Virus record (IMG/VR): IMGVR_UViG_2541047895_000009
Coordinates: 1 to 15,546 of that record
Direction: 5' to 3' (one strand)
Length of the DNA stretch: 15,546 bases
DNA from: a virus
Lineage: Duplodnaviria; Heunggongvirae; Uroviricota; Caudoviricetes
Shown here: positions 1-15,192 of the stretch, in pieces
Layout: each line of letters opens with the position of its first letter
How positions within the stretch are numbered: position 1 is the first letter of the stretch
Position numbers and translations under genes: made by a program
The notes under the pieces: model-generated
Told to the model about the DNA's origin: nothing
Databases searched by the model: none
Seen by the model: the letters and a program-made list of their open reading frames with translations, nothing else

Positions 1-662
<662 letters not shown>

Positions 663-922
663 ATCCACGCCAGCGTGAAGCTGGTATCTCCGGCAGATTT
701 CTGCCCCTGCCCGGTCGCAGTCCAGTCCGCATCTTCATCATCGAGATAGCTGTCGTCATAGGACTCAGCGCTCAGTTCGCCGGGCGTCAGGTCTTTAACT
801 TTAGCCAGACGCGACCAGTCAACGTCTGAAAGCGGGTTCGCATAAGGGTCACCGTTCCCCTTATAAACCCACAGGGTGGTCCCGGCCCCTTTCACCGGCA
901 TTACTGGATTTGGTACAGGCAT
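663..922 (-). pseudogene. V: major tail protein V, N-terminal 86 codons only, truncated by the IS insertion
   Basis: Translation [22 protein letters not shown]...DTSFTLAW matches the lambda gpV N-terminus, then reads into IS-derived sequence ([11 protein letters not shown], stop). ATG at 920-922 lies 7 nt after the U stop. Confidence 0.85.
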
Positions 923-929
923 ATCGTCC

Positions 930-1325
930 TCACATTTCATAGGTAATGACATAAGTCAGATCGGCTGAACTCCACAGGCCCGCATCATCGTCGCGCCGGT
1001 AGTCATAGCCACTGGCCACCATACTGGTGATCAAATCTGACAGTGCCGGGACATCGCTCATCACCGGATAAATCCGGGACTCCATCCACGAATCCAGCTC
1101 TGAATCCGGCACCTGAGCAGGCAGGAAAACTTCAATATGCAGCTCCGCCTGCCAGGTATCGCTGTCCAGCTCTTCGCCCGTGTATTCAGCGCCGGTGAGA
1201 TAAACGGCAACTGCCGGAAAATCCGCCTCATCAAAAACAGCGGGGCGACCATCAAAAAGCGTCGCCCCGGTGTCATGCTTCTCCAGTGCATCCAGTACGG
1301 CTGCACGGAGTTCTGTATGTTTCAT
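930..1325 (-). CDS. U: tail terminator protein U
   Basis: 131 aa, near-identical to lambda gpU as recalled ([22 protein letters not shown]...LTYVITYEM). ATGA overlap with the Z stop. Confidence 0.93.
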
Positions 1326-1900
1326 CGCTTTATTACCATCCTCAGTTGATGCTGCAGCGCATAGCCCAGCTCTTTCGGAAGACGTTCACGCCGTATCCGC
1401 TCAATATTCTGTTTAAACGCCGTGGTCAGCGGCACTGCCATCGGGATTTTCACCACATCAATGGGGTAACGGTTTTTCCCGGCCACACGCTGCATGACAT
1501 GCCACCGGCCATTTTTCAGTTGCTGAATAAACGCGCCGGGAATACGACGGTTTCCCACCACAAGCACGCTGTCGCCACCTTTCAGGGATGAACGCTGCCC
1601 CTTTTTACGACGCCTGCGTCGGGACAGGACAACCCGCGCGTTACCCAGCCTGATTACGGGCAAATCCCCCCGGTTAACCTTGATTCTGGCCTGCGGATTT
1701 TTGACCGTGGCCCTTTTCAGCCTGGCCCTTTCCTTTACCAGTTTCCGGCGTACCTTTGTCTCACGGGCAACCTGTGACGCCGACTGCGATATCGCGGATG
1801 AAGCAACGCGGTTAATGGCCATTGCTGACGCACCAGGCACCGCCGTTCTGCTGATACGGCTGAGGTTTTCAACGGCCTGCTCAAGACCTTTTATGGCCAT
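1322..1900 (-). CDS. Z: tail completion protein Z
   Basis: 192 aa, matches lambda gpZ length and sequence (MAIKGLEQAVENLSRISRTAVPGA...). AGGAGGAGG ribosome-binding site upstream of the ATG at 1898-1900. Confidence 0.93.
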   Translation of the reverse strand: MAIKGLEQAVENLSRISRTAVPGASAMAINRVASSAISQSASQVARETKVRRKLVKERARLKRATVKNPQARIKVNRGDLPVIRLGNARVVLSRRRRRKKGQRSSLKGGDSVLVVGNRRIPGAFIQQLKNGRWHVMQRVAGKNRYPIDVVKIPMAVPLTTAFKQNIERIRRERLPKELGYALQHQLRMVIKR

Positions 1901-1911
1901 ACCTCCTCCTT

Positions 1912-2265
1912 TCAGCGACGACGGTTAACGGCAGGCGGCACGCCACGCCCAAGCCAGAGATGACAGCTTCCGCCATCATCCGGTGAAATCCGGTCTATCC
2001 AGAAGTTTTCCTCACCGATGGTCAGCGTGTCGCCGCGCCGCAGCTGCCGCACATCATCAGTCCGGACAAACAGGGACGGGCAGGAGCCTTCAACACGTAC
2101 GCCCTGTCCGGCATAGCTGATATTTTCAGGGTCATCAAAAACACCACGTATTACTGCGCCGGACTGCTCACCGGATGTCATGGTGGCTGACGTTCCCATG
2201 TACCCGCGTATCGTTTCATCGGCGCGGGCAATGGCAGCATCGAACAGGTTATCGAAATCAGCCAC
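1912..2265 (-). CDS. FII: head-tail joining protein FII
   Basis: 117 aa, MADFDNLFDAAIARADETIRGYMG..., GTG start preceded by GGGAGG. Matches lambda gpFII. Confidence 0.92.
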   Translation of the reverse strand: MADFDNLFDAAIARADETIRGYMGTSATMTSGEQSGAVIRGVFDDPENISYAGQGVRVEGSCPSLFVRTDDVRQLRRGDTLTIGEENFWIDRISPDDGGSCHLWLGRGVPPAVNRRR

Positions 2266-2276
2266 AGCGCCTCCCG

Positions 2277-2675
2277 TTATTGCATTCTGGCCAGGCCACG
2301 TTCTGTCATTTCGGCTGCCACACCGGCAGAGACACGAAATGCCGTTCCCGGCAGCACAAATGCCACAGGTTCATCCCGCGTGGCGTGAAGTGCATCAGTA
2401 TGCAGCGTCACCAGTGCCACGACCGTGGCCAGTTCAGCCGTATCCTGAATCACGGTGTCCGGCTGCGCTGATACCACCTCATTTTCATGCCCGGTCAGCA
2501 CATTTTCCGGGCCGGGAGGGGTATCCTGACCCGCAGCGTCATCCGTGTCATCAAGCTCCTCTTCCAGCTCTGCCACACGGAGCGCCAGTTCTTCTTTCGT
2601 CCCCGTCAGGCTGACATCACGGTTCAGTTGTTCACCCAGGGAGCGGAGACGGGCAATCAGTTCATCTTTCGTCAT
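2277..2675 (-). CDS. FI: DNA-packaging/head assembly protein FI
   Basis: 132 aa from MTKDELIARLRSLGEQLNRD... to ...ERGLARMQ. GGAGGAG ribosome-binding site before the ATG at 2673-2675. The longer 145-aa ORF in the track is an upstream extension. Confidence 0.92.
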   Translation of the reverse strand: MTKDELIARLRSLGEQLNRDVSLTGTKEELALRVAELEEELDDTDDAAGQDTPPGPENVLTGHENEVVSAQPDTVIQDTAELATVVALVTLHTDALHATRDEPVAFVLPGTAFRVSAGVAAEMTERGLARMQ

Positions 2676-2716
2676 GGACTCCTCCACAGAGAAACAATGG
2701 CCCCGAAGGGCCATGA

Positions 2717-3508
2717 TTACGCCAGTTGTACGGACACGAACTCATCAGGGTCAGCCAGCAGCATCAGCGGTGCTGACTGAATCATGGTGAACTCACGCGC
2801 CGGATCGCCGGTGGTCACCCAGTTTTTCGGGTAGCGGGCAGAGGCGTTAATGCCTTCGCGCTGTGCGTCCGCATCCTGAATGCAGCCATAGGTGCGCAGA
2901 CCGCGTGCCTGAGTGTTCCCCAGTACCATCGTGTTGTCCGGCAGGAAGTTCTTTTTGACGCCGTTTTCCACGTACTGTCCGGAATACACGACGATGGCCA
3001 CATCGCCATACATCCCCTTATAGGACACCGCTTTACCCAGGTCTTTTACCGCTGTCTCCAGCTCGGAATTAGAGCCGCGACGGGTATCCAGCTTCTCCCT
3101 GACAGCTTTGAAGGAACGGAACAGCGCCCAGCCTTTCGGATCAAACACGATGATATTCACCACACCGCTGGCATTCAGCGCGTAGGCTTCAATATCGTCG
3201 GTCGGGTCATACGTGGACTTGTCACGCTTGCTCCACTCCGTGCCGCCGGACTGTGTGATGTTGTTCGCCGCACTGCGGCCCATATCCACCTCAACCGGAT
3301 CGAAGGCTTCACCGGTCATGGTGTATTTGCCCCTGAGCACGGCAGAAACGGCCTGCATCTCTTCGACCTGAGCAATGGCCAGCTCTTCGTCTCGCATGTT
3401 CTGCAGGATGATGCGACGGCGGCGGTAAGCCGGGTCCGCCAGATTCTGTGGATCTTCATCCGGCAGGCGACGCAGAGTCATCTGCGGATTCACCTCATGC
3501 TTGGGTTA
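2717..3508 (-). pseudogene. E: major capsid protein E, C-terminal fragment (codons ~83-341), separated from its 5' part by the inserted element
   Basis: Translation (PKH)EVNPQMTLRRLPDEDPQ...DEFVSVQLA matches the lambda gpE C-terminal 259 residues. An in-frame TAA lies immediately upstream of the homology and there is no promoter-proximal start. Confidence 0.9.
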
Positions 3509-3512
3509 CATG
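3494..3512. other. left junction of inserted element (attL-like): ctcaTGCTTgggttacatg
   Basis: Lambda E homology runs to about 3502, then diverges. The sequence is an imperfect direct repeat of 14911-14930 (aagTGCTTcggcttgacata), sharing the TGCTT core. Confidence 0.6.
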
Positions 3513-3583
3513 AGTCAAATATGAAAGGATGTGAATGATTTTTAGTGATAATATGCTTCAGAATTACTTCCAAAACGAACCGT

Positions 3584-3604
3584 TGCAATACATCATGCAA
3601 TACA
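3584..3604 (+). repeat. tandem direct repeats TGCAATACA (2 copies), candidate arm-type integrase-binding sites on the attL side
   Basis: TGCAATACA at 3584-3592 and 3596-3604. The same motif recurs in the same orientation at 14766-14802 beside int. Confidence 0.4.
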
Positions 3605-3626
3605 CAGGATATGTAAGGAGTTATTA

Positions 3627-3812
3627 ATGACTAATTCAGTTGATGTTCAAACCCGTAGAGAAGAATTTGAGCAAGGATATCGAGATGGCTTTCGTTCGGT
3701 TCAGGGCAATGTTTTACCCCCAAAAGCTCCAAGAATTGTACTTGAAACGGGTTCAAAACCTTACGATCAAGGCCATGCTTACGGGGTCAGAGATGCTGGA
3801 GGCAAGCGGTAG
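3627..3812 (+). CDS. small hypothetical protein (61 aa), first gene of the AT-rich cargo operon
   Basis: ATG at 3627 preceded by AAGGAG at 6-nt spacing. The overlapping alternative ORF 3640-3834 has no ribosome-binding site. No recognisable domain. Confidence 0.4.
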   Translation: MTNSVDVQTRREEFEQGYRDGFRSVQGNVLPPKAPRIVLETGSKPYDQGHAYGVRDAGGKR

Positions 3813-3856
3813 CTATCACTGGTATAGTCCATAGAAAAAGTGTAAGGGGTCCTAAA

Positions 3857-4618
3857 ATGGATAATTTTCTCAATGAGTTTTCGTCGGATCAGGAACGAGC
3901 TAGACATTTAGAGAACTTATTAATTAAGGTTGCTCGAGGAGGACCTCGAGATAATAGTGAAAATTATATTTCTCTTAGATCGTACTTTATACAAAACTCT
4001 GTATTAAAACTGTTGCTTCCTGCATTCGTAAGAGAAAACAGAAGCCTAAAAAAATTTTGGGGATTCATACAGCAGAAGTTCCCAACATATAAAGAGCGCG
4101 AGTACTTCATCTCAACTGAATTCACACCGTTATTCGATTATTTCGAAGAGAATCATGCTACGCCTTCGGATGTTCACATAACTGACGGATTAAGAAGCTA
4201 TGATGAGTGTGGCGTGAATGAAGCTTGGGCAAAAGCTCTAGACAGAAGAAACAACGATCCTGAAGGGGCTATTACAGCATCTAGAACATTGCTTGAGACG
4301 GTTTGTAAACACATTCTTGATGATTTAAGTATTACTTATGATAGAAATCTAGACATGAGTGAACTTTATAAACTAACATCCAAAGCACTTAATTTGGCTC
4401 CAGATCAGCACGGAGAACAGATTTTTAAGCAGATACTTAAAGGTTGCTCATCTGTGGTAAATGGCCTTGGCAATTTACGTAATAAATATGGCGATGCTCA
4501 TGGCATAGGGAAAAAACCAATAAAACCTGCTGATCGACATGCTCTTTTAGCTGTTAATCTTGCAGGAAGCATGTCAGTTTTCCTCATTCAAACATGGCAA
4601 AACTTGTCAAACAAATAA
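3857..4618 (+). CDS. Abi_C-domain (abortive-infection C-terminal, HEPN-like) protein, 253 aa
   Basis: C-terminal motif block ...TASRTLLETVCKHILDDL...GCSSVVNGLGNLRNKYGDAHG...ADRHALLAVNLAGSMSVFL matches the Abi_C pattern, including an R-x6-H motif (RNKYGDAH). AAGGGG ribosome-binding site 7 nt before the ATG. Strongly AT-rich relative to flanking phage DNA. Confidence 0.75.
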   Translation: MDNFLNEFSSDQERARHLENLLIKVARGGPRDNSENYISLRSYFIQNSVLKLLLPAFVRENRSLKKFWGFIQQKFPTYKEREYFISTEFTPLFDYFEENHATPSDVHITDGLRSYDECGVNEAWAKALDRRNNDPEGAITASRTLLETVCKHILDDLSITYDRNLDMSELYKLTSKALNLAPDQHGEQIFKQILKGCSSVVNGLGNLRNKYGDAHGIGKKPIKPADRHALLAVNLAGSMSVFLIQTWQNLSNK

Positions 4619-4671
4619 TACCTAATTTTTAACCTCAACTGATTAAATTTCGGTCAAACATCCGTTAGTGA

Positions 4672-4712
4672 AATACAAGTTGCTATGTAAATACACACCT
4701 GCAACTTGTATT
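4672..4712. promoter_or_regulatory. perfect 12-bp inverted repeat aatacaagttgc-N17-gcaacttgtatt, about 54 nt downstream of the Abi_C gene
   Basis: Read directly from the sequence. No U-run follows on either strand, so it is not a canonical intrinsic terminator; an operator or RNA structure is possible. Confidence 0.45.
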
Positions 4713-5572
4713 ACCAACCAAGTTTAGCTCCCGATATTACTCATTTCCATTATTTTTCCTTGGCTAGCGCTTCGTCGAACATTTTTACGTGTTATCTTCA
4801 AGGTAGATGCTCGCAGAAATGATAGTACCACCGATTCGGCGTTGACCATAAGCCAGCAGAACAAGATCCCCTTGGCCGGTTGTATTCGTTACACCACCAA
4901 ATGCATAGAATGCCTTGTTATCAGTATCTTGCTTACTCGGCTACCCACAAGATTGTGGGGATAGCATTTGAGCAACGTAGCCTATCGTCACAGAAGCCCC
5001 TACTACAAACATCATATTACTGGACGCTATACGCGCTCCTGACATTCAGATAGACACAGCAACGCAAATCATTTGCAGCAGACCAGAGCTTTTACTTTCC
5101 ACAATAACTGGCACAAATACGAATTTCCCGACCCTCAGTAGAGAGCACAAGCGCATCTTTTCCAATATTCTGTTTCCTATGAAAAATACAGAATGTCAGC
5201 TCGCGAAATTTACTAGTATTCAGATACTTTTCTAATCGAACCTCTCAGTTTAATCGTCATCATTACCTTATAGCTCTGCATTTCGAGTTCCTACAGTAGA
5301 GTAAGTGTTCAGTAACCCAAGTTCAGGAGAAAGGAAACGATCATGCCATTTTCAGTCCCAAATAATGCTTTCCATTTCCTTTCTTTTCAGGTGGTGTTTT
5401 AAATAAAAACATAAAGTTACGGCGAAGAAGAACGGAAACGCCTTAAACCGGAAAATTTCCATAAATAGAGAAAAACTGCGCGCCTTCCGCCCCGTAACGC
5501 TCCGGATCACCGGAAAGGACCCGCTCAAAAAAAGCGGCCACTGACGTGATTGTTTATGTTCCATGAGCGACA

Positions 5573-5592
5573 AAACCGCCCGGAGGCGGTTT
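5573..5592 (-). terminator. putative intrinsic terminator after the I-like gene
   Basis: Stem aaaccgcc/ggcggttt with a 4-nt loop. On the minus strand the stem is followed by UUUUG, about 20 nt after the I-like stop. Confidence 0.4.
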
Positions 5593-5610
5593 CACATAAA
5601 ACATTCTGCA

Positions 5611-6258
5611 TCAGCGACCAATCACCACGATTTCACCACCATCACCTTCATCAGCTGTGCTGATCTCCTGAGATACCACACGTGACCCCACGCGCATTTC
5701 ACCGTACAGAACAGGCAGGACATTGCCCTGGGCAACCATGTTATCCAGTGACGAGAAATACGTGTTCTGCTTACCGTTATCCGTTGTCTGTGTACGGGGA
5801 GTTCTGGCTTTCGGTGCCAGCATCTGAGCCACACCGCCAAGGATCATACTGGCCCCCGCACTATACATTCCTGTAATTGCTGCCGCTCCTAGCCAACCAG
5901 CGGGGTTCCACCACGCCACCGCAATCAGCGCCGCCCCCAGCACGGTCTGAAACACACCGCCACTTTTAGCGCCAGCAAGACGCGGTACGATGTGGATCAC
6001 AGCACCATTCGCCAGCGGCTCATTAAGACGGGCTGATAATTCATTTTCGCCTGCATCCCGCCCGGCAATCCGTACCTGATACCAACCGTCGCTCAGTTTC
6101 TGACGAAACGACGGTAGCTGTGTGGACAGAGCTCGGATGGCTTCAGCCCCCGTTTTTACACGAAGGTCGATGCGGCGGCCGAATCGTTGCAAATCCCCGT
6201 AAAGGCAGATTCGTGCCATGCCCGATGACGCCAGAGGGAGTGTGTGCGTAGTTGCCAT
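5611..6258 (-). CDS. lambda gpI-like tail assembly protein (215 aa)
   Basis: N- and C-termini (MATTHTLPLASSGMARICLYGDLQRFGRRIDLRVKTGAEAIRAL... and ...KQNTYFSSLDNMVAQGNVLPVLYGEMRVGSRVVSQEISTADEGDGG) match lambda gpI as recalled, with a divergent central segment. It is not followed by a J gene but by a hairpin and ORF-free DNA. Confidence 0.8.
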   Translation of the reverse strand: MATTHTLPLASSGMARICLYGDLQRFGRRIDLRVKTGAEAIRALSTQLPSFRQKLSDGWYQVRIAGRDAGENELSARLNEPLANGAVIHIVPRLAGAKSGGVFQTVLGAALIAVAWWNPAGWLGAAAITGMYSAGASMILGGVAQMLAPKARTPRTQTTDNGKQNTYFSSLDNMVAQGNVLPVLYGEMRVGSRVVSQEISTADEGDGGEIVVIGR

Positions 6259-6298
6259 TTGTCGGTATACCTCTCTCGTTTGCTCTGTTGTTCAGAAA

Positions 6299-6682
6299 TT
6301 AGCAGATCAACTTATAGCGTCCCTTCCGAGCATTGCGGCGTACACGTTCAATCTTGAGGCATAGCGCCGCATCTGGCTTTTTTGGGACTGGTACACGGCA
6401 ATATTCAGAAGCGCGAGGAATATTATTTATCCAGTCAATCACTTCGCTTAAATACCAGGCCTTACGCCCTTCCGTAACCTGCACACGCTCCGGGAACTCT
6501 CCACGGGCCTCAAGGTTTAGCAGTGTACGACGACTCAGGGTTGTAAGTTCCATCACCTGATTCATATCAACAAGACGCTCGCTTAAACGCATTTTGTCAG
6601 CGATAGCTTTTAATTCCTCTACAGCTGGATTTGGGTACATAATTTCGGCAATTGGCTTAAGGTCATTGTAATGATTCTGCAT
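6299..6682 (-). CDS. AlpA-family (MerR/Xis-type helix-turn-helix) DNA-binding protein with an N-terminal extension, 127 aa
   Basis: Core ...MELTTLSRRTLLNLEARGEFPERVQVTEGRKAWYLSEVIDWI fits the AlpA pattern. AAGGGGGA ribosome-binding site 5 nt before the ATG at 6680-6682. Confidence 0.6.
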   Translation of the reverse strand: MQNHYNDLKPIAEIMYPNPAVEELKAIADKMRLSERLVDMNQVMELTTLSRRTLLNLEARGEFPERVQVTEGRKAWYLSEVIDWINNIPRASEYCRVPVPKKPDAALCLKIERVRRNARKGRYKLIC

Positions 6683-6693
6683 TGTATCCCCCT

Positions 6694-7035
6694 TTACACA
6701 CGAGCCAGCGGCTGAACAGAAATACCTGAGCCAACAAACGCTGCAACCTTTACTGACAGTTCTTTTACAGACTCAGGCCAGTTCAGAGCATCAACATTTA
6801 AGACACCTGTCTTATAGACCTGAGCCTGTGTTTTTTTCGCGGTGTCGATTTGTACAGCGGATACATAAACCGCTTTACCTACGCTCGTACCATCCCATAC
6901 CACCAGTGCACCTGTTGCATCTTCCTGCATCAGTGGCGTAAATGCAGGAATTACCCCTTTATTAGCTGAAAATATCCCCAGCGTAGTAACCAGTGCTTCA
7001 GTGCCAGCCATGAGTTCAGTGTAATGAGTAGCCAT
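6694..7035 (-). CDS. gpD-like head decoration protein (113 aa), divergent from prophage D
   Basis: ALVVWDGTSVGKAVYVSAV...YKTGVLNVDALNWP aligns with the lambda gpD motif [19 protein letters not shown]...[23 protein letters not shown] ribosome-binding site; translationally adjacent to the E-like gene. Confidence 0.75.
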   Translation of the reverse strand: MATHYTELMAGTEALVTTLGIFSANKGVIPAFTPLMQEDATGALVVWDGTSVGKAVYVSAVQIDTAKKTQAQVYKTGVLNVDALNWPESVKELSVKVAAFVGSGISVQPLARV

Positions 7036-7044
7036 TGCTCCCCC

Positions 7045-8085
7045 TTAGCCAATGCGAACGGTAACAAAACGATTGATGCGGGCCGGTATTGGCTGTGGTG
7101 CTGAATGTGTCTGCACATATTCAATAGCCGGATCACCAGGCACAATATAGTTTTTCGGTGCAAGTTCGGCTTTAGTCAGCCCCATTCGGATTAGCTCCGG
7201 ATCCTGAATACCGCCATAGGCGACAATCCCCTGAAGAGCCGTATTGCCAAGCACCATCAAATCAGGATCAAGGAAATGTTTTTCAGTTCCGTCCTCGTCG
7301 GTATAACGCCCGCTGTAAACAACAATCGCAACATCGCCCATATACCCTTTAAAACTCACCGAATCACCAAGGTCTTTAAGGGCCGTTTCCAGTTCGGAAT
7401 TAGAACCACGACGGGTATCCAGAGCCTCTTTTATCGCTCTGAATGAACGGTATTTCTTCCATACATTACCGCCCATAATGATGATATTAGTGACGCCCTC
7501 ACTAAATTCTGCGTAGTTCTCAATATCATCATTTGGATCAAAAGTTTCTTTATCCTTACCTGACCACTCAGCACCGCCAGACTGAGTGATGATATTTTGT
7601 GGTTTAATATTCCAGTCCAGCTCATAACGTTCAATACCATCGCCCTCAATGATATTTTTCCCCGTTGTGATTGCCTGAACGGCAAGCCATTCAATACGTG
7701 CACGAATAGCTTTAGCTTGATTTACAATCGCCTGTTTAACTTTAATATTACGCGCCCCAAAAGCATTGTATTGCTCAGGTGATACACCAGCAGGGCGCAC
7801 AGCTAACTTATTTGGATCAATGCTGCTTTTCGGCTTCATATAGCCTGGACGAATTGTTTTTGATTCGTACCCTTCGTCACGTGAAACTTTACTACCCACC
7901 ATAGGAGAACAAAACGCTGCAATTGGGATATTTGGATCGTCGATTGTATCAAGAATAATATCGCGCGATTCAAACATTACCGAGCGAGTAAAAAACAAAC
8001 GGGTAAACAACGCATTTAGTTGTTTTTGTACATCTACAGCATTAACCACCTGTACAAGCTGGGTAGGCGAATATAAATCAACCAT
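7045..8085 (-). CDS. lambda E-like major capsid protein (347 aa), divergent second copy encoded within the inserted element
   Basis: Clear homology along its length to lambda gpE (GYMKPK vs GYVKPK; ITQSGGAEWSGKDKETFDPNDDIENYA vs ITQSGGTEWSKRDKSTYDPTDDIEAYA; LDTRRGSNSELETALKDLG...GDVAIVVYSG). Start taken at the ATG at 8083-8085, 6 nt after AAAGAGG; the 404-aa track ORF is an upstream extension. AT-richer than the prophage E. Confidence 0.85.
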   Translation of the reverse strand: MVDLYSPTQLVQVVNAVDVQKQLNALFTRLFFTRSVMFESRDIILDTIDDPNIPIAAFCSPMVGSKVSRDEGYESKTIRPGYMKPKSSIDPNKLAVRPAGVSPEQYNAFGARNIKVKQAIVNQAKAIRARIEWLAVQAITTGKNIIEGDGIERYELDWNIKPQNIITQSGGAEWSGKDKETFDPNDDIENYAEFSEGVTNIIIMGGNVWKKYRSFRAIKEALDTRRGSNSELETALKDLGDSVSFKGYMGDVAIVVYSGRYTDEDGTEKHFLDPDLMVLGNTALQGIVAYGGIQDPELIRMGLTKAELAPKNYIVPGDPAIEYVQTHSAPQPIPARINRFVTVRIG

Positions 8086-8259
8086 ACGCATCCTCTTTGC
8101 ATTCATTAAAAATAATTGTGGATATATGCTATCACCGATATTTGTCATGCGAATACATGCAACCGAGTGCAATGTTGTATAAAGTTTTGGGATGACAACT
8201 TCAGCGCGGATAATTAGTGTTAATATCTTCACTCCCTTTGGTCGGGATTTATGTAGCAT

Positions 8260-8294
8260 GCCGGAAAATTTATTTTTTTCCGGCCTTTTTTATT
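8260..8294 (+). terminator. GC-stem hairpin plus T-run (gccggaaaa-N7-ttttccggc CTTTTTTATT), terminator-like on the plus strand
   Basis: Read from sequence between ssb and the E-like gene. The U-run follows the stem only on the plus strand, so it would stop antisense or convergent transcription rather than ssb read-through. Confidence 0.35.
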
Positions 8295-8302
8295 GGCAAT
8301 AT

Positions 8303-8752
8303 TTAAAACGGAATATCATCTCCCCATTGCTCATTATCTCCCACTGGTGGATGGCTTCCTTGCTGATCTGCCTGTTGTTTTGCTCTGTTCAGTGCGTCAG
8401 TAGCCTGCCCCTGTTGGCCTTTTTTGCCGCCCGGTCGCACCGTTCGCGCACTGATTACGCTGTCTGCGATAACCTGCCAGCCCTGCCGCGTTTCACCGTT
8501 CTGTCCAGTCCACTGACTCACCTGCATGTTACCCGCCACGCTCAGGAGTTCGCCTTTGTGATGCTTTGCCAGCGCGTCGGCTTGTCTGCCAAACGCCAGA
8601 ACAGATAACCACATCGTCGCCTGACCGTCATCCGATTGGCTGCAGGGCAGTGATACCGCCATACGCGCCAGCGTCATGGGGGTGCCCTTGCTGGTCTGTT
8701 TTGTCTGCGGGGCGTCCACCAGCCGCCCGTAAGCTGCTATTTGCGCCGTCAT
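8303..8752 (-). CDS. ssb: single-stranded DNA-binding protein (SSB)
   Basis: 149 aa. OB-fold-like N-terminal region, Gly/Gln-rich linker and the hallmark acidic C-terminal tail ...WGDDIPF. ATGA overlap with the upstream ORF. Confidence 0.85.
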   Translation of the reverse strand: MTAQIAAYGRLVDAPQTKQTSKGTPMTLARMAVSLPCSQSDDGQATMWLSVLAFGRQADALAKHHKGELLSVAGNMQVSQWTGQNGETRQGWQVIADSVISARTVRPGGKKGQQGQATDALNRAKQQADQQGSHPPVGDNEQWGDDIPF

Positions 8753-9006
8753 GCTGCCTGCTCTCCGGACTTAATATTGATGGTTGTCACTTCCTCCGCT
8801 TCGGCAATCTCCCGTTCGGTCAGCGTGGCAAAGTTTGCAGCCGCCGTTGTCATGAATGCGCTTATCAGTTCGGGATGTGCTTTCGCGTATCCTTCCCCGG
8901 CGTTGCGGTCTATTGCCTTAATCGCCACCCTTAGCCAGTGTTCAGCCATATCAAGGGCGCGGTAATGTGGCTTTATATGTTTGTTCAGTTTTCCTGATGT
9001 GTGCAT
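8749..9006 (-). CDS. hypothetical protein (85 aa), between origin and ssb
   Basis: ORF translationally coupled to ssb (ATGA overlap). No recognisable motif. Confidence 0.45.
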   Translation of the reverse strand: MHTSGKLNKHIKPHYRALDMAEHWLRVAIKAIDRNAGEGYAKAHPELISAFMTTAAANFATLTEREIAEAEEVTTINIKSGEQAA

Positions 9007-9051
9007 TTTTATTTTTACCCCCTCGTTTAAAAAGTTTTTTGTGCACCACCA

Positions 9052-9283
9052 CCTTGTCTACCTTGTCTACCTGATTAGTTATCAGGCCAGTAATGGCGCG
9101 GGTTTCAGGGAGGTAGACAGCCCCAAATAGCTGTCTACCTCATCTCTACCCGTCTCCTTACCTGTCTACAAAAATGGGTAGATAAGGTAGATAACAGGTA
9201 GACAGTGAAAAATAGTTATCTACCTGCATTAATACATTGAAATAAAAGTATTTTCTTTCAGTCAGGTAGACAAGGTAGATAAC
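9052..9283. repeat. iteron array, putative replication origin: at least 11 copies of GGTAGA(C/T)A / T(G/A)TCTACC in both orientations
   Basis: Copies include cttgtctacc x2 (9053-9071), gaggtagacag, gctgtctacc, cctgtctaca, gggtagataaggtagataacaggtagacag, ttatctacc and caggtagacaaggtagataacc. Lies immediately downstream of the primase gene in an AT-rich non-coding gap. Confidence 0.7.
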
Positions 9284-9295
9284 CATTGCCATTTT

Positions 9296-11047
9296 TTATA
9301 AAAACGCATCGCAATCATCAGTAGTCGTTGCGTTGGTCTGCGTGACTCCCTTAACTTTTCGCGTAATATATTCATATCCGTAAACTTTCGCCGCTGACCT
9401 CATAGCCTTTCCGAACTCATTCACGCTCAAACATTTCCCCTTTCCTGTGTATGCCATGAAGGCCATATAGACACGGTAAAGGCTGTTTCTGGTCGTGTAC
9501 TTCACGGAGTCACCACCACCGCCCATCATTAGCCCACGAGCTTCCTCCAGAAACTCAAGCGCCGCGCAAAGCTCAACAACTGGATCCGTTTGCTGCTTTA
9601 TTGCCAGAGCTTCATCACCGTCACGCTGTTCCAGTAGTAAAGCCCTTGCCTTTTCAGGGTCAGCAAAGTTAGCCAGCAAGCGGCGGATAATTACGGGGAT
9701 TTCTGCCGCTATCTTTTCCGGTAATTCCTTGTCTTTTTCGTCCTCCCTTACAATGTTGTCGAACCGGAAAATCACCCGACGGCGTGACACACCTCCGGCC
9801 CGTTCGGTAAAGATCATCGGGTCGTTATTGGTTGCCAGTACCACCGCCCTTATTATCGTCGTGAATCGCTTCTCATATTTCGGATTGATTTCAACGGGAT
9901 CGCCTCCCGTGATTTTCTTGATGCCCGTGCCTTCCCCCGTATATTTCGGCTGATCGGCAAGGACGATAAGACGACTCCCGACAACCTGCGCGCGCCCTCC
10001 TGCATCATCGAGTGATGTCATCTCTGCGCTTACGGTGTTCTGTTTGCCTGCAAGCAGGGTGGCAATATGGGTAAATGTACTCTTACCGCTTCCCCCGTCT
10101 CCGGTGGCCTCAATGAACATCTGCCAGTCGTAGCGGTTCGCCATAATCATGTATAACGCGGCACATATACGCATCATCTTGCGCGGGTCTTTTCCTGCAG
10201 CATGTTCAAGCCATTTATGGAAATTTGGCGCATTATCGCGGATGTTTTCCCCTGCTACTGGTGGCGTGTACTCAATACCATTGTGCGTGGTGCTCCAGTG
10301 CTCCGGCGAGTGCGGAGAAAATTCCCCCGTTTTCAGATTAAGCACACCATTAGTGAACGGTAGCAAATCACCGGACGGCTCCCCCATGGGGGCGGCAATA
10401 ACTTTTAACGCTTCCACGGCGTTATTGATTACGCGTTTGCTGAACGTGGCCCTGTGCTCTGAATAGATCGCCACCATTTCGCGGCTCAGCTCCATTGTGC
10501 TGACCGGACACCATACCCCGCCGCGCCATACGTGGACGATTTCACTTTCTGCATGAACACAAACACCATCAAAGCGATCGGCAAGTAGTTGTGCCCGCTC
10601 ACTGTCTGCCATCTGTGAAAGTTGCGCCTTTTGCTTCGTCGGAAGATTAAGCACCAGGCTTTCCCCACGCTCGCATTCCTCTTTGAGTCGCGGCAACTGG
10701 TCGGATAAATCCACAGGGCTGGTGTCAGTAATCCCCGCGTATTCGTGTACGGTCTTCACTCCAGCCACAGCCAGTAACGTAACAATCTGCGTCATGCTGT
10801 GCTCTGTGATATGTCCTGCGCGGTAAACACGCACACACTGACGATCTTCATCAATGATCCGGTAATCGGTGATGTTTTTCAGTTGCTCATCAGCCAGCAC
10901 GACAGGCGGCACATCGTCGGCGGCAATATGTTTACCCGCCCATTCCTGCCACTCTTTCGCATGGCTCCACGCATCACTACCTGCAAAGATGATTACCTCT
11001 GTCAGTCTGTCGCGTGGCTGTTTTTTTAAGTTCGGTGCCAGTTTCAT
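9296..11047 (-). CDS. P4-alpha-type primase/replicase (D5-N / phage-plasmid primase C-terminal family), 583 aa
   Basis: Walker A P-loop EATGDGGSGKSTF plus the typical satellite/PICI primase-helicase layout. ATGA overlap with the upstream 99-aa ORF. Confidence 0.88.
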   Translation of the reverse strand: MKLAPNLKKQPRDRLTEVIIFAGSDAWSHAKEWQEWAGKHIAADDVPPVVLADEQLKNITDYRIIDEDRQCVRVYRAGHITEHSMTQIVTLLAVAGVKTVHEYAGITDTSPVDLSDQLPRLKEECERGESLVLNLPTKQKAQLSQMADSERAQLLADRFDGVCVHAESEIVHVWRGGVWCPVSTMELSREMVAIYSEHRATFSKRVINNAVEALKVIAAPMGEPSGDLLPFTNGVLNLKTGEFSPHSPEHWSTTHNGIEYTPPVAGENIRDNAPNFHKWLEHAAGKDPRKMMRICAALYMIMANRYDWQMFIEATGDGGSGKSTFTHIATLLAGKQNTVSAEMTSLDDAGGRAQVVGSRLIVLADQPKYTGEGTGIKKITGGDPVEINPKYEKRFTTIIRAVVLATNNDPMIFTERAGGVSRRRVIFRFDNIVREDEKDKELPEKIAAEIPVIIRRLLANFADPEKARALLLEQRDGDEALAIKQQTDPVVELCAALEFLEEARGLMMGGGGDSVKYTTRNSLYRVYMAFMAYTGKGKCLSVNEFGKAMRSAAKVYGYEYITRKVKGVTQTNATTTDDCDAFL

Positions 11048-11774: not shown

Positions 11775-11959
11775 TAATGCACCTCTTTTAATTCATACAC
11801 TGCTGAAATAATGACTTGTGATAAGCCATATTCTGATGATTCGCTTCTCACCGCAGCAATAGCCGTCTGAACATTAACAGCCTTCACGTTCTGAGCGATA
11901 CCAATTGTGTGGCCTCGTGGGTTAACAGCTCGGGCAAATACACGGAAGGTTTTAAGCAC
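11774..11959 (-). CDS. hypothetical small protein (61 aa), GTG start
   Basis: GTG at 11957-11959 preceded by AGGAGG at about 6-nt spacing. Overlaps the stop of the upstream ORF. Confidence 0.45.
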   Translation of the reverse strand: MLKTFRVFARAVNPRGHTIGIAQNVKAVNVQTAIAAVRSESSEYGLSQVIISAVYELKEVH

Positions 11960-12155
11960 GGCGCACCTCCTGACGAATACGGGCAGCGAATACCATCACG
12001 CAGCCAGTTGGGGATTGCTGGCGGGCTTCCTGTTCGCTGATGGCCTCGATGGTAATCACGCGCGGTTGTGCCGTACTCAAGGCGATAAAACGCCAGATGT
12101 ATTTATTCAGGTTGTGCGAGTTCCGCCCTTGCGGGTGTGTGGTATGATTTCTCAT
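11952..12155 (-). CDS. hypothetical small protein (67 aa), first gene of the leftward regulatory operon
   Basis: ATG at 12153-12155 preceded by GAGGT. The longer track ORF (to 12215) would run through the upstream inverted-repeat region. Confidence 0.45.
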   Translation of the reverse strand: MRNHTTHPQGRNSHNLNKYIWRFIALSTAQPRVITIEAISEQEARQQSPTGCVMVFAARIRQEVRRA

Positions 12156-12190
12156 AGCTACCTCGATACTGTTGCTATCGTTGGTGGTTA

Positions 12191-12292
12191 AACGCCCTGT
12201 ATGTGTTGCGAGCACTGCAGGGCGTTGTTCCAGAGCAATAAAACATGATAAGGTGTGTACCTATCAAGAAGCATACTAAGCAATAGGTACAT
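12191..12292. promoter_or_regulatory. divergent promoter/operator region with two inverted repeats
   Basis: AACGCCCTG-N18-CAGGGCGTT (12191-12226) and GTGTACCTAT-N18-ATAGGTACAT (12255-12292), located between the divergently oriented small-ORF operon and the RHH gene. Confidence 0.4.
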
Positions 12293-12294
12293 AC

Positions 12295-12489
12295 ATGTCA
12301 ACTATCATTCAGCGCGATAAACAGCCGAAAGGTGCTGGTAAGGCACCGGCATTTCAGATCCGTATCAACCCGGAACTAAAAGAACAAATGGTTAGTGCGG
12401 CTGCAAAAGAAGGAATGAGTTTGGCTAATTGGCTTAAAGAACTAGCAAGAGCAGAACTACGCAAACAAGGTATTGAACCTAGAGGTTAA
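12295..12489 (+). CDS. Arc/ribbon-helix-helix-type small DNA-binding protein (64 aa), candidate repressor or antitoxin
   Basis: KAPAFQIRINPELKEQMVSAAAKEGMSLANWLKELARAELRK fits the RHH beta-strand plus two helices pattern. No obvious Shine-Dalgarno; the second inverted repeat abuts its start. Confidence 0.6.
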   Translation: MSTIIQRDKQPKGAGKAPAFQIRINPELKEQMVSAAAKEGMSLANWLKELARAELRKQGIEPRG

Positions 12490-12513
12490 GACTTTTAAAA
12501 GGATCTGTGAGAG

Positions 12514-13239
12514 ATGCAAAATCTAAAACGAATAAGTGAATATAATTTAACAGACAATCCTATCCCACATTATTTCCCTCATGATAGTAGATTCCTGTCT
12601 CTACTTGGGAAATTTTCGTTCCGACTTGAAGATCTAATAGTATTTCACTCATTTGTTTATCATACATATAACATAAATCTTAAGGAGATACAAAAAATTG
12701 CAGATAACACTCCCCAATATAATCCAGACTTATTAGACGATGAAGAGCATGAAATGGCCTTGATTTCTCAAGCCAGACATAGAGAGAGGGTTGGTTATTA
12801 TGATGATCTTAATAGAAAAGCCTCATTTTTTGCCAATGACAGTGTCGTAATTAATCTTTGGGCTATTATTGAACAGTTTAGTACCATGGCATACTCTTTG
12901 CTAGAAGCAATTATTAAAGAAATACCTGAAAATCAAGTTAAAGTTCCATATACATGGGATAAATTAAAAAAGAAATACTTAAGTTATGGTATTGACCTCT
13001 CCCAACTTGATTCTTACGATGTCATTAACGAAACTAGGGTTTTAAACAACAAAATCAAACACCTTTATATTGTCGATGAAAACCTTGCCTCTTTTCCTTT
13101 TTTCAAGGACAAAGAGAACAAGTCATTATTAGGAATGGAATATAGGCTTCAAGATTATGTTATTGGAACTCATAAGTTCATCGGGCATCTTTTAGAGGAT
13201 TGCTCCATAAAATTAGGAAATAAGGCAAACATGATTTAA
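12514..13239 (+). CDS. hypothetical protein (241 aa), very AT-rich cargo gene downstream of the RHH gene
   Basis: Long uninterrupted ORF 24 nt after the RHH gene. No motif I can assign with confidence. Confidence 0.65.
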   Translation: MQNLKRISEYNLTDNPIPHYFPHDSRFLSLLGKFSFRLEDLIVFHSFVYHTYNINLKEIQKIADNTPQYNPDLLDDEEHEMALISQARHRERVGYYDDLNRKASFFANDSVVINLWAIIEQFSTMAYSLLEAIIKEIPENQVKVPYTWDKLKKKYLSYGIDLSQLDSYDVINETRVLNNKIKHLYIVDENLASFPFFKDKENKSLLGMEYRLQDYVIGTHKFIGHLLEDCSIKLGNKANMI

Positions 13240-13243
13240 ATTA

Positions 13244-13270
13244 ATTAGGTAGGTAATAAACCTACCTAAT
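13244..13270. terminator. perfect 10-bp inverted repeat attaggtagg-taataaa-cctacctaat between convergent genes
   Basis: Read from sequence; sits between the 241-aa gene (+) and alpA (-). AT-rich flanks on both sides, so possibly a bidirectional terminator. Confidence 0.45.
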
Positions 13271-13279
13271 TGAAATGAT

Positions 13280-13513
13280 TTACTTATTTAAGTACCATTC
13301 CCCACGAATCCACGCCTGCACCTCCGAAAGGCGATATGCTACGGCAGTGGCACCTATTTTAATTCGCTTTGGAAACTTTCCTTCTTTCTCTAACTTCCAT
13401 CGAGTGCTATTAGCAAGAGTAGTTAACTCACGGCATTCTTTCTCACGGATCATTCGGTCAATGTTAGGAATGTATTCCAGACCCTTTTTATCAACAATTG
13501 CCATTTTTTTCAT
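13280..13513 (-). CDS. alpA: AlpA-family excisionase/transcriptional regulator (77 aa)
   Basis: ...CRELTTLANSTRWKLEKEGKFPKRIKIGATAVAYRLSEVQAWI fits the AlpA helix-turn-helix pattern. Immediately downstream of int on the same strand. Confidence 0.8.
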   Translation of the reverse strand: MKKMAIVDKKGLEYIPNIDRMIREKECRELTTLANSTRWKLEKEGKFPKRIKIGATAVAYRLSEVQAWIRGEWYLNK

Positions 13514-13514
13514 G

Positions 13515-14750
13515 TTAACCAGCCTTTTGTTTGAGGATTGTCACTTTTGAATCAGCAGCTGCGATGCTATTGAGATATGTAGTCCAGAGTTCCAGAGCAT
13601 CCAGTTTTTTAGCCATAAACTTACTCCGGTTGTAAACACCTGCCACGCCAGGTAGCGCATGGCCTAACAGTTGTTCTACTACATAAAATTCAACACCGAG
13701 ATCACTTAGATGAGTAGATAGCGTTCTTCTAAGGTCGTGTAGTGACCATTGTTTTTCATGGCCCAAACGTTTACCGATTTTCCCCCCAATCTTGCTTACG
13801 CTTTCTCTAATTCGCAGACTTCCCAGCACATAACCAGTATGTTTTGTCTCTTCGTGAACATCCGTTACCCACTGTCGTAGAATTTCAGGTACTGGTCTGA
13901 CGATTTCAACACCAGTTTTTGAGTGATCTTTTGGTACAGTCCAAACCCAACTTTCGAGATCCCATTCGCTCCATTCTGATAATCGGGCTTCACTCATTCG
14001 ACATCCAAATACTGTACAAAGCACAAACATTTTTCGCGTGTATTCAGACATTAGTTTTAAATCAGGCTCGACAAAAATTGCCTTCCAGAGCTGGCCGAGT
14101 TCGGCTTCATCCAGAACCCGATCCCGCTTACCTGCAATCTGCCCCACATCACTCATGCGCAAATCCTTTAAAGCATCACACGTCGCGTACTGGCGTACCC
14201 GACAAAAACGAAGAGCTAATTTAGTGTCAGAAAAAACATACGCCGCCATAACTGGTGCATTACTTTTAATTCGGTCAAAACAGTCCAGCCATTCATATAG
14301 GTGAGTGTCATTTACGGGCAAATGACCGATATAGGGAAAGATATGCTTTCGAAATCTGCCAAGCGTTACAGCATGAGTTTTACGACGCACCTTACAGTAA
14401 TTTTCATACCAGTAATTTAGTGCATCCTCCACTGTGACCGGCTTTAAGCGTTCTTCAGCCTGAATCTTAATCTGGATACGCGGATCACGTTTGTCAGCCA
14501 ACCAAGCACGGCACTCGTCGCGCTTTTCCCTTGCCTGTTTGAGTGACATATCAGGATATTTACCCAACGTTAGCCAGACCGGAGCAGCCCGGCCACCTGC
14601 TAACCTGTAGAAGAAAACAAAGCTCACAGCCCCCTTGGTACTCACACGAATAGAAAGCCCCTTTCCATCAGCAATGGTGATCTGCTTTTCTCTGGGTTTC
14701 CCCAGATATCCTTTAAGTGCTTTGTCGCTCAGTTTGTTCTCGCCAGCCAT
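13515..14750 (-). CDS. int: P4-type tyrosine integrase (411 aa)
   Basis: N-terminal arm-binding-type domain (LSDKALKGYLGKP...ADGKGLSIRVSTKGAVSFVFFYRLAGG...WLTLGKYPDMSLKQAREKRDE) and a catalytic domain with R...HDLRRT...LLGH...Y. Start taken at the ATG at 14748-14750; the 455-aa track ORF is an upstream extension. Ends about 160 bp inside the right junction. Confidence 0.9.
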   Translation of the reverse strand: MAGENKLSDKALKGYLGKPREKQITIADGKGLSIRVSTKGAVSFVFFYRLAGGRAAPVWLTLGKYPDMSLKQAREKRDECRAWLADKRDPRIQIKIQAEERLKPVTVEDALNYWYENYCKVRRKTHAVTLGRFRKHIFPYIGHLPVNDTHLYEWLDCFDRIKSNAPVMAAYVFSDTKLALRFCRVRQYATCDALKDLRMSDVGQIAGKRDRVLDEAELGQLWKAIFVEPDLKLMSEYTRKMFVLCTVFGCRMSEARLSEWSEWDLESWVWTVPKDHSKTGVEIVRPVPEILRQWVTDVHEETKHTGYVLGSLRIRESVSKIGGKIGKRLGHEKQWSLHDLRRTLSTHLSDLGVEFYVVEQLLGHALPGVAGVYNRSKFMAKKLDALELWTTYLNSIAAADSKVTILKQKAG

Positions 14751-14882: not shown

Positions 14883-15158
14883 CTACACGAAAGCCTCAGA
14901 AAGCCATGCTAAGTGCTTCGGCTTGACATATCCCGGCGTAAATTCAGAGGTGGAGCCGCCACGGGAGCGGATAACCTCACCGGAAACAATCGGCGAAACG
15001 TACAGCGCCATGTTTACCAGCCCCGGAATTTGTGAGAGATAGACTTTCTCCGTGGTGAAGGGATAGCTCTCACGGAAAAAGAGACGCAGAAACAGCGGAT
15101 CAAACTTAAATTTCTGCTCATTTGCCGCCAGCAGCTGGGCGGTTGTGTACATCGACAT
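14883..15158 (-). pseudogene. E: major capsid protein E, N-terminal fragment (codons 1-82) fused to 9 element-derived codons and a stop
   Basis: MSMYTTAQLLAANEQKFKFDPLFLRL...SEFTPGYVKPKH matches the lambda gpE N-terminus, then LAWLSEAFV and stop from element DNA. Confidence 0.9.
14905..14930. other. right junction of inserted element (attR-like): gctaagTGCTTcggcttgacata
   Basis: Lambda E homology begins at about 14914. Imperfect direct repeat of 3494-3512 sharing the TGCTT core. Confidence 0.6.
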
Positions 15159-15171
15159 AAAAAAATCCCGT

Positions 15172-15192
15172 AAAAAAAGCCGCAAAGGCGGC
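15172..15192 (-). terminator. D-E intercistronic hairpin (gccgc-ctttg-cggc) followed by a U7 run on the transcribed strand
   Basis: On the minus strand the RNA reads GCCGCCUUUGCGGC UUUUUUU ACGGGAUUUUUUU AUG. Attenuator/terminator-like structure between D and E. Confidence 0.4.

Follow-up and report, generated by a model that had tools for sequence, protein, structure and literature searches.

A cargo slot beside the gene for a probable Arc-like regulator in a helper-embedded satellite, with a 241-residue protein as candidate phage defence

The position of Stl in the Staphylococcus aureus pathogenicity islands (SaPIs) and the cI-rexAB arrangement of phage lambda, in which, in the resident state, one transcript carries the immunity repressor gene together with an abortive-infection module, are regulatory layouts to which the locus described here can be likened. 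Among the phage-inducible chromosomal islands (PICIs), helper-embedded elements have been described at the capsid-E site (the 11capE type), with genes ordered in Integration, variable ('Bro'), Replication and Late zones (PMC10111431, Mageeney et al. 2023), and immune systems have been reported at both the 5' and the 3' ends of PICIs (PMC11364771). HEPN domains are four-helix up-down bundles with an insert between helices 2 and 3, an Rx4-6H motif that closes helix 3 and in which a polar residue follows the arginine, an acidic residue in helix 2, and metal-independent RNase activity (PMC3710099, Anantharaman et al.); one of them, HepS, is a solo anticodon nuclease of the Gifsy-1 prophage, and its trigger is the tail-tip protein J (PMC13043305; PDB 9OIK). 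Here we analyse a stretch of 15,546 nt from a virus of the Caudoviricetes (IMG/VR virus record IMGVR_UViG_2541047895_000009), hereafter the window, and in particular two adjacent genes, one encoding a small ribbon-helix-helix (RHH) protein and the other a protein of 241 amino acids (aa). The RHH gene is a backbone gene of the satellite that occupies most of the window, and the 241-aa gene is swappable cargo.

A backbone gene and the slot behind it

The features on which the comparison of sister elements turns are the following.

12295-12489, plus strand: RHH gene, encoding a 64-aa Arc-like ribbon-helix-helix protein; satellite backbone gene
12514-13239, plus strand: 241-aa gene, encoding a predicted all-helical protein of an unannotated family, with a predicted HEPN-like fold and invariant R175-N179-K182-H183
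12486-13292, unstranded: swappable cassette, with no nucleotide homology to sister elements and with flanks 89-97% identical
13243-13271, unstranded: hairpin with a perfect 12-bp stem and a 5-nt loop, between the convergent cargo and alpA stop codons
13280-13513, minus strand: alpA, 77 aa, satellite regulator/excisionase family (Phage_AlpA PF05930, 6.5e-15)

An earlier reading of the letters alone (the sequence-only reading) had described an RHH open reading frame (ORF) followed after 24 nt by a 241-aa ORF of strikingly low GC, lying in a variable region beside the integrase module and separated from convergent alpA by a perfect 10-bp inverted repeat. The coordinates and the gap are correct, the GC content of the 241-aa gene (0.32) is indeed far from that of the RHH gene (0.44), the primase gene (0.52) and the window as a whole (0.48), and comparison with sister elements bears out the variable region; the inverted repeat is real and perfect, its length being 12 bp rather than 10. 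A 726-nt open frame at such a GC content, a family of 255 representatives and a structure model with a predicted local distance difference test (pLDDT) score of 92 together indicate that the 241-aa ORF is a real gene and not a chance frame.

Homology to the sister element L002 ends at position 12485 and to the sister element L010 at 12498, and in both cases it resumes at 13293. These breakpoints delimit a foreign segment of ~0.8 kb that consists of the 241-aa gene and the hairpin, and since the left-hand breakpoint falls at the RHH gene's 3' end, the cargo alone is foreign. The breakpoint also led us to reject the proposal that the whole pair of RHH and cargo genes arrived as a recent low-GC foreign insertion. 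On either side the elements are closely related: alpA is 97-99% identical in L002 and L010, and in strains SCU-316 and SCU-101, where homology breaks at these positions, the integrase and AlpA proteins are 97-100% identical (~97% at the DNA level) and the RHH 84-89%. In place of the 241-aa gene, L002 and L010 hold PD-T7-1 or putAbiC, and because such near-identical sisters carry known anti-phage genes in the slot, the 241-aa gene is, by its slot context, a reasonable candidate for a single-gene phage defence. The suggestion of the sequence-only reading that the locus might hold defence cargo stands to this extent, as a clean cassette in an appropriate slot.

The two genes differ widely in their distribution. 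Homologues of the RHH region were found by a sensitive DNA search in 107 of 5426 complete E. coli genomes, and the 241-aa gene by megablast in 4 of the 5426; a further 2 genomes share the RHH gene at 87% identity (megablast) and then diverge, and at least one more, that of strain 90-9280 (L028), encodes a 236-aa protein of the same family, ~50% identical and below megablast detection. When 98 RHH loci were compared, including 80 fetched from IMG/VR, at least 10 unrelated gene families were found downstream on the same strand, and 28 of the 98 loci were without a same-strand cargo ORF. The slot ranges from 264 to 2216 nt in length, and in most cassette types the cargo starts 1-81 nt past the RHH stop codon. 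In annotated examples, the interval from the RHH gene to alpA is either essentially empty or occupied by the 241-aa family, by a protein of 360 aa or one of 158 aa, by a 'putative abortive infection protein', by a SWIM protein together with a 265-aa protein, or by a 147-aa protein together with a Bro-N gene. Occupants recognised by searches comprise PD-T7-1 (PADLOC 1e-124; full-length copy 3e-156) and putAbiC (Pfam 2.8e-16), alongside DUF5677, DUF2971, a Dam methylase and small membrane proteins.

The locus thus has the conserved flanks, the unrelated genes in one and the same slot, and the known defence genes among them by which a hotspot is recognised. Weighing against a firm assignment, at least 8 of the cargo families in the slot are uncharacterised, as are most of the occupants other than the 241-aa gene, so that two recognised families are what stands behind the label 'defence hotspot'.

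The same cargo family is found in satellites at other sites. Related elements in Yersinia (L007, L008) and in E. coli 90-9280 (L028) carry it within a gene for a ClpP-type prohead protease/capsid fusion, and a related element of Raoultella and Klebsiella (L003-L006) lies at a chromosomal site beside cydAB-like genes. The cargo family therefore rides on satellites whose integrases are 51-53% identical.

The cassette closes with the hairpin, whose arms (13243-13254 and 13260-13271, 12 nt each) are 100% complementary across the 5-nt loop, with a folding energy of -18.5 kcal/mol. In L002, L010, L038, L048, L007 and L009, each cassette type has a perfect hairpin of its own between the cargo stop and the alpA stop, unrelated in sequence, GC-rich or long, and with folding energies between -13 and -25 kcal/mol, so that the terminator seems to move with the cargo and not with the backbone. 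The hairpin at 13243-13271 is probably a bidirectional terminator or insulator of the cassette.

The Arc-like protein and its putative operator

In a PDB profile search, the RHH profile matched the Arc repressor of phage P22 (1b28_A) with E=3.7e-4 over residues 12-59 of the 64. Library searches returned the Arc-like repressor family of PHROG (4.6e-7) and Pfam HicB (5.5e-5, above cutoff), all of which agrees with the ribbon-helix-helix assignment of the sequence-only reading. Residues Q9, N11 and R13 of Arc, which we take to be the base-contacting beta-strand residues of the Arc-operator structure, align with A19, Q21 and R23 of the RHH protein. The DNA upstream of the RHH gene has the following features.

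12253-12294, unstranded: candidate operator, with arms at 12253-12264 (GTGTGTACCTAT) and 12283-12294 (ATAGGTACATAC)
12273-12301, minus strand: putative sigma-70-like promoter, TTGACA-17-TAGTAT, 10/12 match to consensus, directed toward the Icd-like/primase operon
11952-12155, minus strand: Icd-like gene, first gene of the leftward replication operon and divergent from the RHH gene
9296-11047, minus strand: D5-type primase gene of the same leftward operon, with small ORFs and DUF4222 between it and the Icd-like gene

The two arms are inverted, stand 18 nt apart and keep this position in every related element, the right arm ending at the RHH start codon; the -10 element of the leftward promoter lies between the arms and its -35 element abuts the right arm. 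Among 41 non-redundant combinations of protein and promoter, both arms always co-vary, and they track RHH residues 19 and 21 in five classes.

Residues A/Q: arm GTG(T/C)GTACCTAT, 18 cases
Residues P/H: arm GTGTACACCTAT, 10 cases
Residues T/Q: arm ACGTACGTA, 7 cases
Residues M/N: arm AGGTATAGACCTA, 3 cases
Residues I/S: arm TGTATGGACC, 3 cases

Each single arm is itself a dyad, of the form AGGT-N4-ACCT in three classes and a perfect ACGT repeat in one; such dyads suit a symmetric RHH dimer, and an RNA stem would not need them. Since the arms co-vary with the equivalents of the DNA-reading residues of Arc, the RHH protein is probably the satellite's own regulator or autoregulator and a putative repressor of the replication operon. 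Two points tell against this assignment. The promoter scan returned no convincing rightward promoter, and the covariation of RHH and operator is partly confounded by the physical linkage of gene and promoter: because the gene adjoins the site, part of the correlation is simple co-inheritance, and the preserved symmetry of the arms is the stronger argument.

A competing reading of the arms is an RNA hairpin, that is, a leader or an antisense-RNA element of the P4/P1-like RNA immunity kind, with the RHH protein in some other role. Compensatory changes do keep the arms complementary, as an RNA stem would, P4-type satellites have an RNA-based immunity close to Icd/Bro genes (PMC10111431), and a second compensating hairpin is present in the leftward leader at 12191-12226. 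We nevertheless regard an RNA element as unlikely: there is no credible Rfam match, C4 and isrK included (the window at E<=1 and positions 11900-12320 at E<=10), the dyads within the arms fit binding by an RHH dimer with two-fold symmetry, the -10 of the leftward promoter is bracketed by the arms and its -35 adjoins them, and the protein positions that change are exactly the equivalents of the base-reading residues of Arc.

The leader of the Icd-like operon deserves separate mention. At 12191-12226, a stem of 9-11 bp (AACGCCCTG...CAGGGCGTT) recurs at an equivalent position in every related element, where compensatory changes give the pairs GACGCCCTAGG/CCTAGGGCGT, GAAGCCCGG/CCGGGCTT, GACGTCCCGAA/TTCGGGACGT and GGCCATAGCAA/TTGTTATGGCC; the leader folds at z=-2.9 relative to shuffled sequences. 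It matches no Rfam family, C4 and isrK included, and is perhaps an attenuator or an immunity RNA in the style of P4/P1.

In E. coli SK1144 (L029), an RHH homologue of class M19/N21 with its own matching arms stands divergent from an operon that includes a Mor-family activator, and alpA, integrase and primase genes are absent nearby. The module of RHH protein and putative operator is therefore not confined to PICIs.

The 241-residue protein and the proposed working of the module

Close relatives of the 241-aa protein form 10 clusters at 90% identity, and a full HMMER scan yielded the 255 family representatives, 46 of them at E<=1e-30; the names given by their sources are all 'hypothetical protein', and a literature search found no paper citing the family accessions. 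As the sequence-only reading had held, no motif can be assigned: there was nothing in Pfam and PHROGs at E<=0.1, nothing in PADLOC at E<=1, and in NCBIfam there were chance-level matches alone, far below the curated cut-offs. A tblastn search against 50,697 phage records returned no match.

Conservation was read from an alignment of 74 sequences, the most divergent of which share ~16% identity with the window protein. Four residues are invariant in it (R175, N179, K182 and H183), E120, E173, N178 and L191 are near-invariant (E120 in at least 90% of the sequences), and the motif R-[VLC]-[LV]-N-N-x-[IV]-K-H is present in almost every member. Structure prediction and remote homology, both of which the sequence-only reading had proposed for this protein, had different outcomes. 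The AlphaFold (AF2) model is confident and all-helical (pLDDT as given above; predicted template-modelling score 0.84), with helices at 25-64, 76-135, 148-157, 168-183 and 212-240; profile and structure searches gave no credible match. The model can be read in a HEPN-like topology, in which helix 1 spans 25-64, helix 2 76-135, an insert 136-167, helix 3 168-183 and helix 4 212-240. The four-helix up-down bundle and the insert between helices 2 and 3 fit the HEPN description, as does the acidic residue, E120, which lies in helix 2 and, judged from the helix register, would stand at the same level as H183. The motif fits in part, in position and chemistry: helix 3 ends with H183, and N179 is invariant. 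R175, N179, K182 and H183 lie on one face of the helix (i, i+4, i+7, i+8), a stripe compatible with a rewired HEPN site.

Several results speak against a HEPN relationship. The spacing R175-x7-H183 falls outside Rx4-6H, and the canonical position of the arginine is taken by N178. Pfam searches with ten distant members and then with the 74 aligned members (E<=10) gave no recurring family, and a PDB profile search with the 74-sequence alignment gave chance matches only, with no HEPN link. Comparison by hhalign with a single DUF86 HEPN protein and with a 102-sequence DUF86 alignment gave probabilities of 0.1-0.2; DUF86 was the sole HEPN family compared profile-to-profile, and its alignment, of low diversity (63-100% identity), makes a weak test. 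Foldseek searches against PDB and BFVD returned nothing below E 0.06, generic helical bundles being intermixed at like scores. The HepS gene, sought for direct comparison, was not found in the LT2 Gifsy-1 record. On balance, we consider a HEPN-like fold quite likely and the odds of RNase activity about even; our best guess is that the protein acts like a HEPN effector, and we do not file it as a canonical member.

These observations can be combined in one explanation, to which we give somewhat better than even confidence: a satellite Arc-like regulator accompanied by a solo HEPN-like abortive-infection effector as cargo. The satellite resides in its helper's capsid gene. There, as homology, position and covariation suggest, RHH dimers would bind the two arms that straddle the divergent promoter region, repressing the leftward Icd-primase replication operon and regulating their own rightward operon. 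The cargo would be co-transcribed with the RHH gene in the resident state, as its strand, the short gaps of most cassettes and the conservation of the hairpin suggest, and transcription would end at the hairpin, against convergent alpA transcription. In the resting cell the 241-aa protein would be inactive, and it is presumably harmless alone, because the family is widespread without a partner. By analogy with HepS (PMC13043305), a component of an incoming phage may then activate the protein, which would cleave RNA (tRNA or mRNA) through its R/N/K/H site and so abort the infection.

A bolder version joins three claims, and we hold the conjunction to be rather doubtful. The 241-aa proteins would be a new, widespread family of solo abortive-infection RNases with a HEPN-like fold and a rewired site (R-x3-N-x2-K-H + E120); the trigger of the RNase would be a structural protein of infecting lambdoid phages, with the satellite's helper prophage spared; and the RHH protein would be the hitherto undescribed master repressor of this large group of gram-negative PICIs, with at least five operator specificities (immunity types), and would couple satellite repression to constitutive expression of whichever defence cargo the slot holds.

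The distribution of the family bears on two further alternatives. Distant members, at 30-38% identity, occur in Vibrio, Halomonas, Bradyrhizobium, Rhizomicrobium, three cyanobacteria, Pseudomonas and Psychrobacter as single low-GC genes, mostly with no space for an upstream partner, and an RHH homologue is absent from all 11 distant-genome loci and the 2 plasmid loci of the family. Their neighbours are self-contained toxin-antitoxin modules (UPF0175/DUF3368, DUF433/DUF5615, BrnT, MNT-DUF86), an integrase or housekeeping genes, and the two plasmid copies lie among insertion sequence (IS) elements, a HipBA module and a RelA/SpoT-domain gene.

The 241-aa protein might instead be a factor of the satellite life cycle or of helper interference, acting on capsid, packaging or gene expression, neither a host defence nor an enzyme. 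We consider this improbable, as the gene is dispensable for the backbone and missing from sister elements, the family occurs without a satellite in cyanobacterial, rhizobial and plasmid contexts beside toxin-antitoxin modules, integrases and IS elements, and the invariance of R/N/K/H and E120 down to the most divergent members points to catalysis or ligand binding and not to scaffolding.

Least probable is a type II toxin-antitoxin pair, in which the RHH protein would be an antitoxin that binds and neutralises a 241-aa toxin and autoregulates the operon: the order of a small RHH gene and then a larger protein across 24 nt, the label 'HicB family antitoxin' given to the RHH by Pfam and NCBI, the usual proximity of the 241-aa family to an RHH or DUF3950 gene in enterobacterial satellites, and the existence in general of RHH antitoxins paired with HEPN toxins all recommend it, but the RHH gene also stands beside PD-T7-1, putAbiC, SWIM, DUF5677, small membrane proteins or nothing, the family lives solo in the distant genomes and plasmids just listed, RHHs at 84-89% identity accompany different cargo while RHHs at 69-72% accompany the same cargo family, the 16 N-terminal RHH residues are conserved irrespective of cargo, and the Arc alignment over residues 12-59 of 64 leaves no room for a toxin-binding tail. 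The antitoxin-toxin pair proposed by the sequence-only reading is accordingly not supported, and its proposal to see whether the two genes move as a unit found both of them split across unrelated contexts. Its other suggestion, a repressor-effector pair, survives loosely, in that a repressor probably controls the operon expressing whichever cargo is present; the two genes are not a dedicated pair.

The satellite and its comparison with known systems

The element in the window is a helper-embedded PICI satellite of ~11.4 kb, which interrupts a lambdoid prophage in its lambda-E-like major capsid gene. Its remaining landmarks are listed below.

2717-3493 and 14883-15185, minus strand: halves of the lambda-E-like capsid gene, split by the ~11.4-kb satellite
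3627-3812: 61-aa ORF that precedes the AbiJ-like gene
3857-4618, plus strand: AbiJ-like gene, 253 aa, with an Abi_C/AbiJ-type C-terminal domain (Pfam 1.7e-23, PADLOC AbiJ 2.4e-22)
13515-14750, minus strand: gene for a 411-aa tyrosine integrase (ATG at 14750) of a clade targeting prophage late genes (PMC10111431)

E. coli RM14723 carries an identical region, whose RefSeq annotation was used for gene order: int, alpA, the RHH and 241-aa genes, the Icd-like gene, small ORFs, DUF4222, the D5-type primase gene and SSB, followed by major capsid, head-decoration and helix-turn-helix (HTH) genes and the second AT-rich spot discussed below, with the whole satellite gene set flanked by the two halves of the prophage major capsid gene. 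In the window these halves rejoin in frame, reading ...GYVKPKH and then EVNPQMTL across the junction, presumably the sequence of lambda E, and the satellite has intact capsid and decoration genes of its own. The att core is short; no shared repeat of at least 9 nt was found. An int-alpA unit, a variable zone, a primase/replication zone and a late zone with capsid, all within a late gene of a prophage, are the marks of a helper-embedded gram-negative PICI, and the match to the elements of PMC10111431 means that the satellite type is already known.

The late zone also contains a gene for a tail-assembly protein (5611-6258, minus strand) and a tail-protein fragment, adjoining the HTH, decoration and capsid genes; these tail genes fit the idea of satellites capturing helper late genes (PMC10111431). 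The primase ORF has 583 aa in the window and ~606 aa in relatives, and the matching RefSeq record flags both primase and integrase as 'frameshifted'; the integrase of the window has an open frame, and its alignment with intact relatives covers 100% of its length.

A second AT-rich variable spot, at 3450-5400, lies at the other end of the satellite, so that the RHH-alpA slot marks the int end and the AbiJ-like protein the far end. At this second spot the sister element in SCU-316 has an Mrr-like restriction endonuclease, and another relative has a 'HEPN domain-containing protein' just past the replication gene, where the late zone or second slot would lie. With contents as variable as these, the satellite seems to have two cargo slots.

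Both the satellite type and the existence of defence hotspots in satellites are already known, and for specialists the surprise is limited by the latter. The 241-aa family is unannotated and a plausible new candidate for single-gene defence, with an atypical HEPN-like site as modelled. If the protein is protective, an unannotated single-gene family with 255 representative clusters, from enterobacteria to cyanobacteria, would be added to the defence catalogue, together with another HEPN-type effector with a displaced catalytic arginine. The RHH protein and its putative operator system are apparently an undescribed regulatory feature of gram-negative PICIs: in the searchable literature the activator AlpA alone is described as a PICI regulator, and in its searchable text there is no paper linking PICIs, alpA and a ribbon-helix-helix repressor. 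With its five co-varying classes, the RHH is a testable candidate for the silencing of the replication operon in gram-negative satellites. The slot itself, set between a short recognisable RHH gene and alpA and closed by a hairpin, is a compact 'bait' for harvesting defence-gene candidates from PICIs.

Among the known systems, HepS has no detectable sequence relation to the 241-aa protein (PDB profile search, E<=10), and the canonical R100-x4-H105 of HepS differs from R175-x7-H183 with an asparagine at the canonical arginine position. HepT/DUF86 proteins (SO_3166, PDB 5YEP; 7AE2) have ~130 aa and are always paired with an MNT antitoxin, whereas the 241-aa protein has no partner, an arginine shifted by three residues and an additional long helical hairpin; when its family profile was compared with the DUF86 profile by hhalign, the probability was 0.1. 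With lambda cI-rexAB, the locus shares a repressor gene and a defence-type module in what would be one operon; the proteins are unrelated, and co-transcription in the satellite is suggested by strand and short gaps. The parallel with Arc and Mnt of P22 comprises a small RHH protein that aligns with Arc over nearly its whole length and dyad-symmetric candidate sites over a divergent promoter region. The satellite RHH differs by a conserved N-terminal extension of 16 residues, and its predicted sites are ~30 bp apart, compared with the adjacent half-operators of Arc and Mnt. The helper-embedded PICIs of PMC10111431 agree with the element in size (~11.4 kb), in the order of int-alpA, variable zone, replication and late genes, and in insertion into a lambda E-type capsid gene; the RHH protein, the operator classes and the 241-aa cargo family go unmentioned in that paper. 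Finally, like the defence hotspots of PICIs and P4 elements (PMC11364771, PMC9122126), the satellite carries accessory or immune genes at both of its ends.

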